This document shows positions 8,469 to 64,000 of a stretch of 64,000 bases of DNA, piece by piece. Each line of letters begins with the position of its first letter. Within the stretch, counting starts at the first letter, position 1. Position numbers and translations under genes: made by a program. The stretch is from IMG/VR virus record IMGVR_UViG_3300049141_000098, positions 195,647-259,646 of that record; one strand, 5' to 3'. This DNA is from a virus. Its lineage: Duplodnaviria > Caudoviricetes. The notes below the pieces were generated by a model, which saw only the letters and a program-made list of their open reading frames with translations, did no database searches and was not told where the DNA came from.

Positions 8469-8533
8469 CCATCCGGTAATGCACTGGAACGCTCCGGTCA
8501 CCCTTCCGGAGCGTTCCCGAACGTCACGGGATG
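8469..8533 (-). other. long intergenic RNA hairpin, family 1
   Basis: 12-bp perfect upper stem GGAACGCTCCGG/CCGGAGCGTTCC; GUUCG/AGUGC core; lower stem paired. Confidence 0.8.
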
Positions 8534-40985: not shown

Positions 40986-41192
40986 TCAGGCGTTGCCCGT
41001 CTGGGCAGCGTCACAGTCGTGCAGGAGGTCCGTGGTGGCCCCGCATTCACACAGGGTGGGGCCGGGTTCGTCGCCGTCGTAGTTCCCGCCGCAGGAACAG
41101 TGATGGCCCTCGTAGATGTAGCAGTGCACGAAGTGCGGGCCGTCCGGCAGCCGGTTGTCGTTGGCGATGACCTGGTGGGTCAGGAAGTTCAC
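40986..41192 (-). CDS. small Cys/His-rich protein
   Basis: GTGA coupling. Confidence 0.65.
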   Translation of the reverse strand: MNFLTHQVIANDNRLPDGPHFVHCYIYEGHHCSCGGNYDGDEPGPTLCECGATTDLLHDCDAAQTGNA

Positions 41193-41680
41193 TCCTGCCC
41201 TCCTTCGTTCGTGACGTTACTGCCGATGTCCATGCTCCGCAGCACCGCCTCGGTCATGTTGCGGGCGGCATCGGATCGGTTGGTGTCCGGGATGAAGTCG
41301 ACCAGCACCTCACTCACGGCCAAACGAACCTGCTCCTCGGCATCGCGACGCCAACTTTCGACCGTCTCGGCAACGCGTTGCTTCGCCCAATCGAAGTAGC
41401 CTGTCGGGACTTCGCTCTCGATGACCTCGGCGAGTCGCTCCTGAAGTGTTCCCATGGTGCCGGGAGGCGGGTACTTCAGAGGTGGCGGCCCCATGCGTTC
41501 GATGCACTTGGTGCAGGTGACCTCGGCATCCTTGGCGCACCAAACGTGCGGATTCTCGGGGTTCAGCCAGAGCAGGCAGACGGTGCGGTGACCACTGACG
41601 GAATGGCTTCGTGCAGCGTGAACCTCATCGGTCCCCGCATAGCGCACCCTGAGAGGGAACTTGTCTGGGGGGATGGGCAT
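41189..41680 (-). CDS. hypothetical protein
   Basis: Track ORF with RBS. Confidence 0.65.
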   Translation of the reverse strand: MPIPPDKFPLRVRYAGTDEVHAARSHSVSGHRTVCLLWLNPENPHVWCAKDAEVTCTKCIERMGPPPLKYPPPGTMGTLQERLAEVIESEVPTGYFDWAKQRVAETVESWRRDAEEQVRLAVSEVLVDFIPDTNRSDAARNMTEAVLRSMDIGSNVTNEGGQE

Positions 41681-41732: not shown

Positions 41733-41742
41733 GGCCTAGGTC
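41733..41742. promoter_or_regulatory. GRCCTAGGYC palindrome (candidate operator)
   Basis: GGCCTAGGTC, intergenic. Confidence 0.65.
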
Positions 41743-41766
41743 ACCTCGTGAGGCCCTGGCCTTCTG

Positions 41767-42516
41767 TCACTTCTCCGGAGTGCGGTTGTACTCAGCCAGC
41801 GCCGCCTTGCTGGTGTCGGCCGTCTGGAACACCAGCTCCCACGGTCCGGTGTTGACGTCGAACTCCTTGCCGAAGCCGACCCACTGCCCCTGCATGCGCC
41901 GCCCGGTAGGTTCGACCAGCATCTGGATCGCGCCGTGATACACAGCCCCCCGGTAGTAGCCGTCCTTCGCCGTCTCCTCCGTCCAGGTACCAGTGACGAT
42001 GTGCCGGTCAGCCTCAAGGGTCATCCAGAGCGGGGACTCAGGATTGAGTGACCCCTTCGGCAGGGACTGCACCGACAGACCAGTGCCGTGCTGGAGAACG
42101 ACCACGTAGTGCATGCCAAGCAGCTCGGCGTTGTCGCGCCCGGAACTGACGTACTTGTACTTCGACAGCCAGATGCCCGACAAAGGCCCGGCCGTAGGGA
42201 CGATGGGCTTAGGGGCCGGGATGGTGACGGGCAGCAGCTCACCCTCAACATCCACGAAGGCGGGAAGCTGGAAGCCGAGTGCGGAGAGGGGGCGGCCTGT
42301 CACCGCCTCCAGGACGCCCCGGTAGTTGGACCGGGGGGCGGCGATTTCGCCCGACTCCCAGCGCTGAACAAGCCTCTTGCTGGCGTCGTTGGCACTCCCC
42401 AGCTTTTCACCCGCCTCACGCAGGGCTTCGGCGAATCCTTCTTGTGTCATGCCTAAAGACTTCCTGACTGCTCGAAGTGTGTGGTTGGGCGTCTTGGCCC
42501 GTACGGGTGTGGTCAT
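41767..42516 (-). CDS. XRE-family regulator with C-terminal beta-rich domain
   Basis: LRAVRKSLGMTQEGFAEAL...VQRWESGE; GIWLSKY...GTWTE...GQWVG. Confidence 0.85.
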   Translation of the reverse strand: MTTPVRAKTPNHTLRAVRKSLGMTQEGFAEALREAGEKLGSANDASKRLVQRWESGEIAAPRSNYRGVLEAVTGRPLSALGFQLPAFVDVEGELLPVTIPAPKPIVPTAGPLSGIWLSKYKYVSSGRDNAELLGMHYVVVLQHGTGLSVQSLPKGSLNPESPLWMTLEADRHIVTGTWTEETAKDGYYRGAVYHGAIQMLVEPTGRRMQGQWVGFGKEFDVNTGPWELVFQTADTSKAALAEYNRTPEK

Positions 42517-42689
42517 GTCCTCACCGTAGCTCAGAGTCGATCGAAATGACGCCCTAATGACGCCCTCTATGACGTCGCGAACTACCCCTGGGGGAGGGCA
42601 TCTTGGAGTCGTGAACAACAGGCCCCACCCGGAGCAACCGCAGGTCGCCAGCCGCGAGGTGAAGCAAGAGTTATATGGTCCATCAGGAT

Positions 42690-42699
42690 GGCCTAGGCC
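42690..42699. promoter_or_regulatory. GRCCTAGGYC palindrome (candidate operator)
   Basis: GGCCTAGGCC in the divergent region upstream of the XRE gene. Confidence 0.65.
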
Positions 42700-42856
42700 G
42701 TCAAGGTGGTTCGGTGACCAGGATGTTCCGGGTGGCAGGGCGGCTCCCTCGATGTGGCCCGAGGGAGTGAGGGAGATTCGGTAGTGGAGACCGAAGCTCC
42801 GATCGCCAGGCCTGACCAAAGGAAAGGTGGGACTCCGTTGGGAGGCCTGCCGGGCT

Positions 42857-42963
42857 CCTCCGGGTGACTTGCCCCCGGATGTAGAGGCCCCTCGGGTGAC
42901 TTGCCCCCGAGGGGCCTCATCCCGTTTTGCGGAAGTTGGCAAAAGTCACCCCATAGGGTGACG
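42857..42963. repeat. twin hairpins with identical loop plus an inverted third copy
   Basis: CGGGTGACTTGCCCCCG at 42861 and 42893; GGCAAAAGTCACCC near 42940. Confidence 0.7.
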
Positions 42964-42965
42964 CC

Positions 42966-43187
42966 ATGAGTGAACCCGACGACCCGCGCTTCGAGTGGAT
43001 CTGCATCACGACCTTCGGGAGCGACGGTGAAGAGTGGGTCCGAGGCCAGTGCAAGCACCTCAACCCGATCCCCGTACATGCGCGCCCAACCGGCGAGCTG
43101 GTGGCCAAGCTCTGCCCAGACTGTGACGCTCAGTTGTCCGTGCCGGATCCGGGTCCGGCCTGGCTGAGTACTCCGTCCCCCGAGTGA
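42966..43187 (+). CDS. small zinc-binding protein
   Basis: CKH...LVAKLCPDCD. Confidence 0.65.
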   Translation: MSEPDDPRFEWICITTFGSDGEEWVRGQCKHLNPIPVHARPTGELVAKLCPDCDAQLSVPDPGPAWLSTPSPE

Positions 43188-43266
43188 AGTTTCGGGAGTT
43201 GGCGCACAACGGCTCCTGTGGAAGCGCATAATGTGGATTAAGAGTCCACTCCAGAGAGGTCCAACT

Positions 43267-46789: not shown

Positions 46790-46942
46790 ATGACCAACAC
46801 CCAAGAGGTTACGGTTCACGTCGACCTGGACAACGAGCTTGCAACCGCATGGCTCGATCGCCTCCTGGAGTGCACGCGGCATCCGATGTACCAGAACGGG
46901 ATTCGCCTCATACGGAAGACGAACCTCACCGAGGAGCGATAG
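46790..46942 (+). CDS. 50-aa hypothetical protein
   Basis: TAGTG overlap with the next gene. Confidence 0.55.
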   Translation: MTNTQEVTVHVDLDNELATAWLDRLLECTRHPMYQNGIRLIRKTNLTEER

Positions 46943-47517
46943 TGGCACACGACTCGCTCGCCCAGGTGATGGTCGATTACGCCTCACAGGGCATGACCTT
47001 GGCTCAGATCGCAGCCAAGGTGGGCATGGACGTCGAGGCCGTACACGAGCGCATGACCTCGTACCTGGAAAACCAGGCGACCTCGATGTCCGTCGTGCAG
47101 ATGCGCATGCTCCAGCTCAACAGGCTGGAGCGCGTCATCCAAGCACTGTGGGATCAGGTGATGGCCGGTGACCTGATGACTCAAGGCCGGAACGTCAAGA
47201 ACATGATCGAGACGGTCCGCGAGATCACTGAGCTGATGGATCTGAAGAAGGACCGCCTGCGCGATGAGCAGGTGCGGCTGACCCAGGCCCAGACTCAGCT
47301 CGTCACCACGGCGATCGACGTGATCCGTATAGGGATGCTGGAGAAGATCGTAGAGATCCTCCCCGAAGAGTTCCGGGAAGCCGTCGAGGTCATGTGGAAC
47401 TCGGCTTTCCCTGCGATGGCCGCTGACGCCATCGCCCGCAACAAGGCAGCCGTCGTCAAGATGGGGACTGGCGCGGGGCCAATAGAACTGGCGCCGATTA
47501 TGGAGGAGACGGACTAG
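46942..47517 (+). CDS. probable terminase small subunit
   Basis: N-terminal HTH, RMLQLNRLERVIQALW segment, coiled coil, located upstream of TerL. Confidence 0.65.
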   Translation: MAHDSLAQVMVDYASQGMTLAQIAAKVGMDVEAVHERMTSYLENQATSMSVVQMRMLQLNRLERVIQALWDQVMAGDLMTQGRNVKNMIETVREITELMDLKKDRLRDEQVRLTQAQTQLVTTAIDVIRIGMLEKIVEILPEEFREAVEVMWNSAFPAMAADAIARNKAAVVKMGTGAGPIELAPIMEETD

Positions 47518-50293: not shown

Positions 50294-52663
50294 ATGCTTT
50301 CACAGGAAGAGCGCATAGCTACTGACGCTGAGGCGTACTTCAGAAACCAGGCACGTCAGGCCGGTTGGGTAAACGATCCTGCGGGCTGGGCCAGGGACGT
50401 TCTGGGGGTCCACCTGTGGAGTAAGCAGCGCGAGATCTGCGACTCGCTCATCCACAACAAGAGGACCGTCGTCGCTTCATGTCACGGCACCGGGAAGGCC
50501 CTGGGGCTGGACGAGTTGGTGCACACACCCGACGGGCCGATGGCTATGGGTGACGTGCGCGAAGGCACGACGGTGTTGGGCGCCGACGGCAAGCCGGTGT
50601 CGGTGGTCGCCACGACGGGCGAGCACAAGGCGGAGTCTTACAAGGTTCGCCTTGAACGAGGCGGCGCAACCGAGGAAATCGTCGCTTCCGGCGACCATCT
50701 CTGGCCCGTCCTTCCGCTTCAGATCCTGGCTGACATCCAGATCAAATCCGACCGTGCGGGGGTCCCGGTGGAGACGGGTTTGTGGCATCACCGGGCACAG
50801 GTCATGTCCACGAAAGAGCTGGCCCGACTCCAGGGAATCGCGGTAGTTCCGGGGAAAGTTCCAGAGATCTTCCCCCGTGGAACGGAGTGGGACACCCGCG
50901 AAGTGCTGTCGGACTCATTGAGGGAGAGGGCGGTCCTGGACCCCCTCGGTCGAACTTCCCTGCTCTGGAAGACGCGCAAGGATGAACCAGAGGAGATCTC
51001 AGCAATCCGGGATCGCATGCGGGCGGCCGGGGTGCACACGATCTACCGGCGCGAGCGGCAGTACGGCACCACGATGCGGCATCTGGCCCTGATGGGGACC
51101 CACGCCCCGAACCTGCTTCCAGACCCGAACGTTCGCGCAGTCGCTCTTTCGCACCTGCTGAGCAAGCAGGGAAGTTGGGGCGATGACGGGTGGAGGGTCG
51201 TTTCCGTAAAGCCTGTCGGTGAGCGGGATGTGCAGTGCATCCAGGTCGACTCACCAGACCACCTGTATCTGTGCGGCGAAAGCGGGGTTCCCACCCACAA
51301 CTCGATGATCGCCTCCGTGCTGGCCTGTTGGTGGGTGTCCACCAAACCGCCCGGCCAGGCCATCGTGGTATCGACTGCCCCAACGTACGCCCAGGTCAAC
51401 AAGATCCTCTGGGAGGAGATTCGCAAGCACCACTCCAACTCGCAGCGGGGGGAGTACCCCATGCCGGGCCGAGTGACGCAGGCAGACGAATGGAAGCTGG
51501 CCGACGGCCAGATCGTCGGATTCGGCCGTAAGCCAGCCAAGGGCGACCGGCACTCCTTCCACGGCATCCACCGGCGCTTCGTGCTGGTCCTGTTGGATGA
51601 AGCGTGCGGCGTGCCGGAGGAGATCTGGACCGGCGTTGAGGCCATCACCACGAACGTCGGTTGCCGCATCCTGGCCATTGGGAACCCCGACGACCGCAAT
51701 ACGGAGTTCGGCAAGAACTTCCTGGAGCCCAAGACGGCCCACCTCTGGAACCGCGTCTCGATCCCGGCAGCGACCACACCGAACTTCACCGGCGAGCCGG
51801 TGCCGAGGCTGCTGAACGAAGTGCTCATCTCCCGAGAGTGGGCAGAGGAGCGTCTGGCCGACTGGGGAGAGAAGGATCCTCGCTACATATCGAAGATCGA
51901 AGCCAAGTTCCCCGAGCAGAGCCAGTCGTCGCTGTTCTCACCGTCGCTCATTGCCGACGCGATTGATGAACCCCCTGCGCCGTCGAAGTACTCGATCCTG
52001 CGCCTGGGTGTGGACGTTGCCCGCTTCGGCTCCGACAAGACAGTGGTCGCCTCCTGCTCGGGCGTGACCGCACAGATCGAGGAGTCGTGGTCCGGCGTCG
52101 ACACCGTGTCGTCGGCATACAAGGTGCTGGACATCGCCGAGCGCCTGAAGGAAGAACGCAAGGCACCCTGGGTGGAGATCCGAGTTGACGGCGTCGGCCT
52201 GGGGGCTGGCGTCATCGACACCCTCAACGCCCGTGCCGCACTGCTGCCCGACCCCTGGTTCACCGTGTACGAGATGCACGGGTCGGCTTCCCCTCCGGCA
52301 AATGTGGGCGGCTCGGTCTACGGCTTCTACAACGCAAGGGCTTACTGGTTCGACCAGCTCCGTCAGAAGATGCGCAACAGCTCGGTGAAGCTGATCGACC
52401 CTGACGAGCTGATCGCTGACGACCTGAAGATGGTCTTCTACTCGATCAAGAACGGCCGCCTGCTCATCGCCTCGAAGGAAGCGATGAGATCCGAGTATGG
52501 CCGCTCCCCTGACCTTGCCGACGCCGTCGCCTACGCCACGGCACCCGTTGCTGATGGTCTTCAGCAAGGCGACATCGTCGCCGAGACGGCGGTAGAGGTT
52601 GCCGGTATGTACGGCGAGGAAGAGTGGCTGACAGATCCCGAGACTGTGATCGCCCCGTACTGA
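50294..52663 (+). CDS. terL: terminase large subunit with intein
   Basis: Walker A SCHGTGK/S split by the intein; Walker B LVLLDEA; GNP motif; nuclease LGVDVARFGSD, PDLADA. Confidence 0.95.
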   Translation: MLSQEERIATDAEAYFRNQARQAGWVNDPAGWARDVLGVHLWSKQREICDSLIHNKRTVVASCHGTGKALGLDELVHTPDGPMAMGDVREGTTVLGADGKPVSVVATTGEHKAESYKVRLERGGATEEIVASGDHLWPVLPLQILADIQIKSDRAGVPVETGLWHHRAQVMSTKELARLQGIAVVPGKVPEIFPRGTEWDTREVLSDSLRERAVLDPLGRTSLLWKTRKDEPEEISAIRDRMRAAGVHTIYRRERQYGTTMRHLALMGTHAPNLLPDPNVRAVALSHLLSKQGSWGDDGWRVVSVKPVGERDVQCIQVDSPDHLYLCGESGVPTHNSMIASVLACWWVSTKPPGQAIVVSTAPTYAQVNKILWEEIRKHHSNSQRGEYPMPGRVTQADEWKLADGQIVGFGRKPAKGDRHSFHGIHRRFVLVLLDEACGVPEEIWTGVEAITTNVGCRILAIGNPDDRNTEFGKNFLEPKTAHLWNRVSIPAATTPNFTGEPVPRLLNEVLISREWAEERLADWGEKDPRYISKIEAKFPEQSQSSLFSPSLIADAIDEPPAPSKYSILRLGVDVARFGSDKTVVASCSGVTAQIEESWSGVDTVSSAYKVLDIAERLKEERKAPWVEIRVDGVGLGAGVIDTLNARAALLPDPWFTVYEMHGSASPPANVGGSVYGFYNARAYWFDQLRQKMRNSSVKLIDPDELIADDLKMVFYSIKNGRLLIASKEAMRSEYGRSPDLADAVAYATAPVADGLQQGDIVAETAVEVAGMYGEEEWLTDPETVIAPY
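50498..51301 (+). mobile_element. class 3 intein (268 aa) in the TerL P-loop
   Basis: Starts with Ala (ALGLDELVHTPDG); DHLW, VQCIQV, PTHN/S give the Trp-Cys-Thr signature. Confidence 0.9.
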
Positions 52664-63453: not shown

Positions 63454-63945
63454 ATGGCTGCAATGGGGACCTCGGCCTCGATGGACGTGTGGCCGCCTGA
63501 TTTTTCCACGCCCATCGGGCGCATCCGTGCGCTCATTCCGGATGTGGAGATGGTCGATTACTCGGCTGAGGGGACGGCGCAGTATCTGTTTTCAGACGCC
63601 CACCTGGCCGGTCTCTACGCAATATCCGGCGGTCCTGAAGCAGCTCGCACTTATCGCGCCGCCGCCTCCGCCCTGCGAGCACTAGCCGTCTCCGAAGGGC
63701 TAATTCAGAAGGTCATTCGAACAGAAGACCTTCAAACCGACGGCGCAAAGCTGGCTTCAGCTTTGCTTGCTGGCGCCAAGCAACTGGATGACCGCGCCGA
63801 TGCTGCTGAGGATGAGGACGAGGCGATGATGATCGTCGACTTCCAACCTTTGCCGCAGGACGGATTCTCGTACACGCTGCACGGCTTTCCCTCCAGCGCA
63901 GTAGCGAATATCCCGAGCGGCCAAGGATTCCGGGGGTGGTTGTGA
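63454..63945 (+). CDS. probable head-to-tail adaptor
   Basis: PIGRIRALIPD...FSDAHL...AAASALRALA...LQTDGAKLA. Confidence 0.75.
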   Translation: MAAMGTSASMDVWPPDFSTPIGRIRALIPDVEMVDYSAEGTAQYLFSDAHLAGLYAISGGPEAARTYRAAASALRALAVSEGLIQKVIRTEDLQTDGAKLASALLAGAKQLDDRADAAEDEDEAMMIVDFQPLPQDGFSYTLHGFPSSAVANIPSGQGFRGWL

Positions 63946-64000
63946 CGCCAGGGTCCCTGTTGCGCCGCTGGAGTTCGCAACTGTTGGCACAGTGGCGCGG

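Follow-up and report, generated by a model that had tools for sequence, protein, structure and literature searches.

Twin hairpins with identical loops near a phage recombinase gene: a candidate 3' end of an XRE-controlled transcript

Two neighbouring hairpins that display the same 9-nt loop lie between the gene for an XRE-family regulator and a tyrosine recombinase gene in the genome of a phage, and the question is to which of these genes they belong. The first-pass annotation offered two answers, namely arm and core sites of an attP or resolution site for the recombinase, or a bipartite RNA or single-stranded DNA element that binds a protein and controls the recombinase operon. The window, i.e. 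the whole 64-kb stretch of DNA analysed here, is the last part of a 259,646-bp IMG/VR virus record (GC 63.6%), and 47 related loci were found in IMG/VR for the portal protein of this phage. Its host is probably a member of the Streptomycetaceae, because distant relatives of the integrase and homologues of the XRE protein sit in Streptomyces and Embleya genomes. We assume, with a probability of roughly 0.45, that the twin hairpins are the 3'-terminal stem-loops and the terminator of a short, strongly folded plus-strand transcript under XRE control, and we infer the ends of this transcript, its termination and any role for the loops from the sequence. If so, the result is mainly a correction of the annotation, since the element would mark the end of a repressor-controlled transcript in a mobile XRE cassette and would not serve a jumbo-phage recombinase as its attP or resolution site. 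The features are collected in Table 1.

Table 1. Features around the twin hairpins (positions of the window)
Feature	Position	Strand	Remarks
XRE-family HTH regulator gene, 249 aa	41767-42516	-	ATG at 42516; left cassette edge
Operator array	42545-42578		three phased repeats: TGACGCC 42547, TGACGCC 42558, TGACGTC 42570
Leaderless-type divergent promoter (putative)	42598-42613	+	CATCTT + 6 nt + GTG(42611); 95 nt from XRE start; placed from the family layout
Predicted ~320-nt highly structured transcript	42611-42929	+	z -5.56
Hairpin H1	42859-42879	+	TCCGGG-TGACTTGCC-CCCGGA; 6-bp stem, 9-nt loop UGACUUGCC; -9.8 kcal/mol
Hairpin H2	42884-42918	+	GAGGCCCCTCGGG-TGACTTGCC-CCCGAGGGGCCTC; perfect 13-bp GC-rich stem, same 9-nt loop; -30.2 kcal/mol; candidate intrinsic terminator
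Tail AUCCCGUUUUG	42919-42929	+	U tract; UUUU on the plus strand only
C box GGCAAAAGTCACCC	42938-42951	+	GGC-AAAA-GTCACCC; inverted near-copy of the loop core with two extra T/A
Palindrome GTCACCC-CATA-GGGTGAC (7-4-7)	42945-42962		unique in genome; ends 3 nt before ATG 42966
73-aa CxH...CxxC protein gene	42966-43187	+	right cassette edge; TAGGGT + 6 nt + ATG
Conserved upstream block of the 103-aa and integrase genes	43205-43250	+	CACAAC..AGCGCATAAT.TG..TTAAG.G; separate from the hairpin element
Tyrosine recombinase gene, 368 aa	43539-44645	+	Pfam Phage_integrase and Phage_int_SAM_1

The recombinase locus and the adjacent cassette

The gene order, established from GC3 profiles and translation, is divergent, with a spacer of 449 bp between the XRE gene and the 73-aa gene, and an ORF of 103 aa (likely true start GTG 43267) stands between the 73-aa gene and the recombinase gene. 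The candidate catalytic residues of the recombinase, R (AGRV), HxxR (HVLR), H and Y, are read as invariant in an alignment of three orthologues. This integrase is encoded in two of the 31 related records, G002 (58% identity) and G003 (54% identity), both of which also have the 103-aa gene, while the 73-aa gene is found in none of the 31. The gene to the left of the XRE gene (41189-41680) is a homologue of the G002 gene that directly faces the int genes there. Since the collinearity with G002 breaks at about 41740 and resumes at about 43190, the XRE gene, the spacer and the 73-aa gene (insert at about 41741-43190) form an accessory cassette of ~1.45 kb that is specific to this phage in comparison with G002 and G003; in G003, a PadR gene takes its place. 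Moreover, the repeat GGGTGACTT does not occur in the 3-kb stretches around int of G002 and G003, where the sole GGGTGAC is one in G003.

These findings bear directly on the proposal that the hairpins are a recombination site, in which H2 would serve as a core of the lox/FRT kind (13-9-13), accompanied by the repeats as arm-type or accessory sites, either in an attP or in a site for dimer resolution. As in loxP, FRT and dif cores and in attP of the lambda type, perfect 13-bp inverted arms flank an asymmetric spacer near a tyrosine recombinase gene; the spacer is identical in two direct copies, the element lies 576 bp upstream of int, and ~70 N-terminal residues of the integrase, ahead of its SAM_1 domain, match no Pfam family. 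Unlike those sites, the H2 spacer has 9 nt, one base beyond the 6-8 known for simple sites of this type, whose arms measure 11-13 bp, the direct copies are only 32 bp apart, too close for partners, and the hairpins are not conserved together with the recombinase. Nor was a host counterpart found in the search of Streptomyces genomes for a common core that the annotation had proposed: there was no attB-like match to 42857-42965 among 301 Streptomycetaceae genomes (E<=1e-3, with the best two candidates per genome scored) or among 401 further ones at E<=1e-8, a search in which short cores lie below detection, and the 64-kb window has no tRNA, the 3' end of which often provides the core of an attB. 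The attP or resolution reading thus loses its main support and is very improbable, and the link of the hairpins to the recombinase is probably coincidental. The other proposal of the annotation holds in part. An action at the RNA level fits better, as judged from the strand-asymmetric fold, the terminator-like H2 and the variation in T-run length described below, whereas the link to the recombinase operon is not demonstrable; the hairpin element fits better as a part of the XRE-controlled transcript and the adjacent 73-aa gene.

A better-conserved candidate for a site of the recombinase is found at 43219-46, within the block at 43205-43250, which is unique in the genome and is kept in G000, G002 and G003, all three with the integrase (in L055 at ~1500-1560 and in L059 at ~2915-2975 on the minus strand). 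The block reads AGCGCATAA-N6-TTAAG(A/C)G, with conserved arms and a variable 6-nt centre, and its version in G003 is nearly palindromic (GCGCATAA/TTAAGCGC). The block is also reminiscent of the XerC arm of E. coli dif. It could be a promoter, the recombinase's own site, or both; it has no match in five Streptomyces genomes, nor did it give one in the 301 and 401 Streptomycetaceae genomes at the thresholds stated above. Among the relatives, the recombinase is present in the ~250-260-kb members G000 and G003 and the fragment G002 only, and it is absent from the four near-complete (99-100%) relatives of 150-190 kb that were searched. Downstream of the recombinase gene are a weak small-terminase-like ORF (46849-47517, PHROG E 0.001), ~3 kb away, and an ORF at 50294, ~5.6 kb away; this position may be compared with that of P1 cre-lox near pac.

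The cassette itself is found in at least four further contigs, in which the 73-aa protein is 90-93% and the XRE protein 94-95% identical, with 86% in Streptomyces sp. NPDC058947. The carriers in JGI are contigs of 40,108 nt (P0130/P0002), 17,529 nt (P0132), 5,159 nt (P0122) and 2,568 nt; another, of 252,977 nt, belongs to Streptomyces sp. NPDC058947 and encodes WP_384857189.1. In addition, the 73-aa gene, which belongs to a small mobile family and whose product has homologues of 59-93% identity, also occurs without the XRE gene or the hairpins in other Streptomyces phage contigs and in plasmids (e.g. NZ_CP108852), and a DNA search of plasmids gave matches to the XRE and 73-aa coding parts only. 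The AlphaFold model of the 73-aa protein is poor (pLDDT 52).

Anatomy of the twin hairpins and the complementary box

The different outer stems and the identical 9-nt loop described in the annotation are read directly from the sequence. The two hairpins have in common the exact 17-mer CGGGTGACTTGCCCCCG (42861-77 and 42893-909), which consists of the loop and four closing pairs and has sharp boundaries with unrelated flanks. Beyond this core the outer stem of H1 adds only 2 bp, so that the contrast of stems rests mostly on H2. In the 259,646-bp genome the 17-mer is found at H1 and H2 only, and the motif is therefore not a dispersed operator or promoter; of the five genome-wide copies of GGGTGACTT, three are at the hairpin element, and GGGTGAC is present in four copies within 101 nt, compared with 29 in the whole window on both strands. 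Nowhere else in the genome do two neighbouring hairpins display the same loop, and the fold of 42840-42975 has a z of -4.6. The hairpin structure is thus real and non-random. The exact 17-mer has a single match in IMG/VR, in an unrelated low-GC locus (L004), the 18 matches to the twin-loop pattern in JGI metagenomes are all unrelated tandem repeats and say little on relatives, and a DNA search of GenBank phages gave no match. A REP or MITE element was rejected, as neither the rest of the phage nor the ~700 genomes that were searched have further copies. In about 1 Mb of loci, the only other pair with different stems and identical loops is at 5084-5146 of L137, a 55.6-kb IMG/VR contig (GGCCGGCCGAGCGG-ttcgcac-... 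and CAGCGAG-ttcgcac-...), 40 nt upstream of a 94-aa gene and with an XRE homologue 1.3 kb away.

The inverted near-copy and the palindrome noted before ATG 42966 are both present, with the correction that the centre of the palindrome is CATA and not CAT. The C box is complementary to all nine loop bases with a 2-nt bulge, and the palindrome region (42945-42965) overlaps a -10-like TAGGGT (42954-59) and a fourth TGACGCC (42959-65); the 18-nt palindrome has a single match in IMG/VR, in an unrelated low-GC locus (L143). Together, the sites make up a family of four copies (A to D) of GGGTGAC(T)nGCC, with n = 2, 2, 4 (inverted) and 0, in which the length of the T run is the sole difference. Such differences are tolerated by bulged RNA helices and usually not by a protein that reads duplex DNA, and they are thus easier to reconcile with bulged helices of RNA, or with slippage, than with a protein that binds the duplex.

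Slippage is the core of an explanation in which H2 is an ordinary terminator, while H1 and the C box arose by recent hairpin-mediated slippage or duplication and have no function of their own. The two base pairs that H1 adds to the duplicated core and the changes in T-run length, typical of slippage, agree with it, and so does the finding that the exact twin-loop arrangement was not found elsewhere in IMG/VR or the JGI metagenomes. It is doubtful in view of the 17/17 identity with sharp boundaries inside otherwise unrelated units of 32 nt, and of three to four copies having been kept without any substitution in GGGTGAC or GCC.

The XRE regulator family and the predicted transcript

The XRE protein has sub-threshold matches to HTH_31 and HTH_3, matches the N-terminal HTH of the NsdA family, and has 1398 homologues, mostly annotated as 'XRE family transcriptional regulator' in Streptomyces; the family is present in 64 of the 301 sampled Streptomycetaceae genomes. 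An ESM Atlas search with the C-terminal domain gave no informative match, and an in-frame N-terminal extension of the gene up to 42942 was rejected as not protein-like. Just upstream of the XRE start, repeats of the TGACGCC type with a phasing of 11-12 bp are found in 29 of 30 chromosomal loci, often followed by inverted copies, and the same layout is present in three ~50-kb IMG/VR phage contigs (L137-L139). Variants of the repeat at the XRE loci L107-L139 are TGACGCC, TGACACC and TGTCGCC. As read from the sequences, the chromosomal modules have a divergent small gene ~99 nt from the XRE start, with CAnnnT + 6 nt + ATG/GTG, which reads as the layout of leaderless actinobacterial genes. The phased repeats with the leaderless-reading divergent start thus look like the conserved operator grammar of the family, and since the phage keeps this layout, a plus-strand transcript from about 42611 is to be expected; scans for sigma-70 -35/-10 elements gave nothing usable. 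Furthermore, the TAGGGT placed 6 nt before ATG 42966 suggests a leaderless start of the 73-aa gene, which probably has its own leaderless-type, XRE-controlled start.

The predicted transcript is a clear outlier in its genome by its fold. Positions 42611-42856 fold with -121.5 kcal/mol (z -4.84) on the plus strand and with -101.7 kcal/mol (z -2.49) on the minus strand, compared with a z of -0.61 +/- 1.09 and a minimum of -2.61 for forty random 246-nt windows of this genome. The asymmetry of 20 kcal/mol between the strands points to RNA rather than to the symmetry of duplex DNA. The transcript may also encode a 57-aa sORF (42611-42784), which is weakly coding-like (GC by codon position.64/.55/.71); it was rejected as a homologue of the small divergent proteins of the chromosomal XRE modules, as their HMM gives no match to it. 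Outside the hairpins, 42706-42761 has recurrent weak matches in Streptomyces genomes, which we read as chance similarity to common coding sequence. None of the families of Rfam 15 reaches its gathering threshold, e.g. 6C (19.2 bits versus 47), His_leader (25.8 versus 49) and sodF sRNA (22.8 versus 46).

H2 with the tail AUCCCGUUUUG looks like the terminator of the transcript from ~42611. With its perfect 13-bp stem, H2 is a stable GC-rich hairpin like that of an intrinsic terminator, and as in intrinsic or tandem terminators of short regulatory transcripts, it has a U run behind it on just one strand and stands between the predicted end of one transcription unit and the next promoter. Unlike those, the second hairpin repeats its apex and a complementary box lies downstream; the 9-nt loop is long for a terminator, and the UUUU begins 6 nt past the stem, so that H2 is not a textbook terminator. 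A scan for consensus terminators did not call it. AUCC (42919-22) can pair with GGAU (42877-80); H2 is then longer (-33.3 kcal/mol), H1 is sacrificed, and only 2 nt separate the stem from the U tract. Displaced U tracts are also seen at other hairpins of this genome (genome positions 29661, cggtttt, and 254517, tacggtttt).

Taken together, the preferred explanation would work as follows. The XRE protein would bind the phased TGACGCC repeats at 42545-78, and the divergent leaderless-type promoter would fire at about 42611; the resulting ~320-nt RNA, possibly also an mRNA for the 57-aa peptide, would end at H2 and its U tract (~42928). This end would insulate the next promoter, the TAGGGT-N6-ATG of the 73-aa gene, and H1 would repeat the apex of H2.

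Possible actions of the repeated loops

A different reading takes the repeats as duplex DNA. In that case, the two 17-bp cores, the C box and site D would be an array of operator or activator sites through which the XRE protein or some other regulator, e.g. the 73-aa Cys/His protein, controls the 73-aa promoter. The four GGGTGAC copies lie in helical phase, as a DNA-binding array would, with centres 32 and ~52 bp apart, which corresponds to about 3 and 5 turns of the helix; the 17-mer has partial dyad symmetry, CGGGTG-N5-CCCCCG; the 7-4-7 palindrome covers the -10-like element, and a genuine operator of the family is present at 42959-65. A DNA-binding array therefore stays a serious rival because of the helical phasing, although we regard it as unlikely. 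The loops read TGAC-TT-GCC and do not match the family operator TGACGCC, which is matched only at 42547, 42558, 42570 and 42959, and the spacing between GGGTGAC and GCC varies (0, 2, 2 and 4 nt), which is rarely tolerated by a sequence-specific duplex binder. Moreover, copy B is flanked by a further 9 bp that are perfectly complementary, which would be useless for duplex binding, and the chromosomal XRE modules do not have comparable hairpins. In comparison with modules of the CI/Cro type, the phage locus likewise has a repressor gene, a phased operator array and a divergent promoter, with the array kept across the 64 of 301 genomes and the phage contigs, and it differs from them in the loop sequence and in ~340 bp of structured sequence added between the array and the next gene.

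In the transcript reading, the identical loops may act as RNA, either by binding a protein or by pairing with the C box in a read-through RNA, because the core belongs to the four-copy family whose last two copies form a hairpin or palindrome on the 73-aa start. The loop and the C box would form a duplex of -9.7 kcal/mol, and this pairing would compete with the hairpin that buries the AUG. A further extension of this idea, which we consider improbable, is a phage riboregulator, in which the identical 3' loops of the derepressed ~320-nt RNA pair with the C box or recruit a protein and so couple the repressor switch to the 73-aa gene and, via read-through, to the recombinase genes. If true, it would be a 6C-like mechanism of 'two redundant loops' in a new RNA family on a mobile cassette.

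The pairing could also work in cis. A leadered or read-through mRNA of the 73-aa gene, and perhaps of the downstream genes, would carry an anti-SD-like GUCACCC that buries an SD-like GGGUGAC together with the AUG, and the upstream hairpins would be decoys or sites for an RNA-binding protein. GGUGA is complementary to the 3' end of 16S rRNA and sits at an SD-like spacing before the 73-aa AUG. As RNA, the C:D hairpin (-15.6 kcal/mol) takes in the A of the AUG, the duplex of the whole core with the C box reaches -20.4 kcal/mol, and 6C sRNA is a functional analogue (PMC6486639). Such a leader is nevertheless rather unlikely. The distance from TAGGGT to the ATG is exactly 6 nt, which is also that of the leaderless-reading starts in the XRE family, and a leaderless 73-aa mRNA would not contain the C box; in addition, the C box is transcribed only after the terminator decision, and the MFE structure is more stable than the alternative pairings, by 7 kcal/mol for a forced A:C pairing.

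Paired RNA stem-loops are known from phage regulatory regions such as lambda nut boxB and HK022 put, where they either affect RNA polymerase during transcription or serve as protein-binding sites. The twin hairpins may be compared with these in form, with no sequence or Rfam relation, and neither an antitermination protein nor a downstream terminator logic was identified here. A further similarity is to 6C sRNA of Actinobacteria (Rfam RF01066), also a high-GC case of two adjacent stem-loops that have their loop sequence in common. Both loops of 6C base-pair with mRNA close to the RBS, in a redundant manner and with no chaperone involved (PMC6486639). Unlike 6C, the phage hairpins score far below the gathering value, as given above, their loops UGACUUGCC are not C-rich, and they stand at the 3' end of a predicted ~320-nt RNA. 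Two by-products of the analysis could be of more consequence than the corrected annotation, namely the putative operator grammar of an XRE family that roughly one in five of the sampled Streptomycetaceae genomes carries, and a candidate ~320-nt structured RNA. The repeated loop and its complementary box also offer a small system in which loop-mediated RNA control in a Streptomyces phage could be tested by mutation.

Two further observations concern the record as a whole. The 'direct terminal repeat' at its ends (window 63874-64000) is 127 bp long, a length typical of the k-mer overlap of an assembler, and may be only an assembly overlap or reflect a circular assembly rather than physical ends. 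Another family of hairpins, GGA....TCC, is found at 1187-1217 and 8486-8517 of the window and at 184818-184843 and 185862-185888 of the genome, with CGAACG on one flank and the complement of AGTGCA on the other; members of this family are repeated in the minus-skewed gene arm and may serve as a transcription or processing signal specific to the phage.
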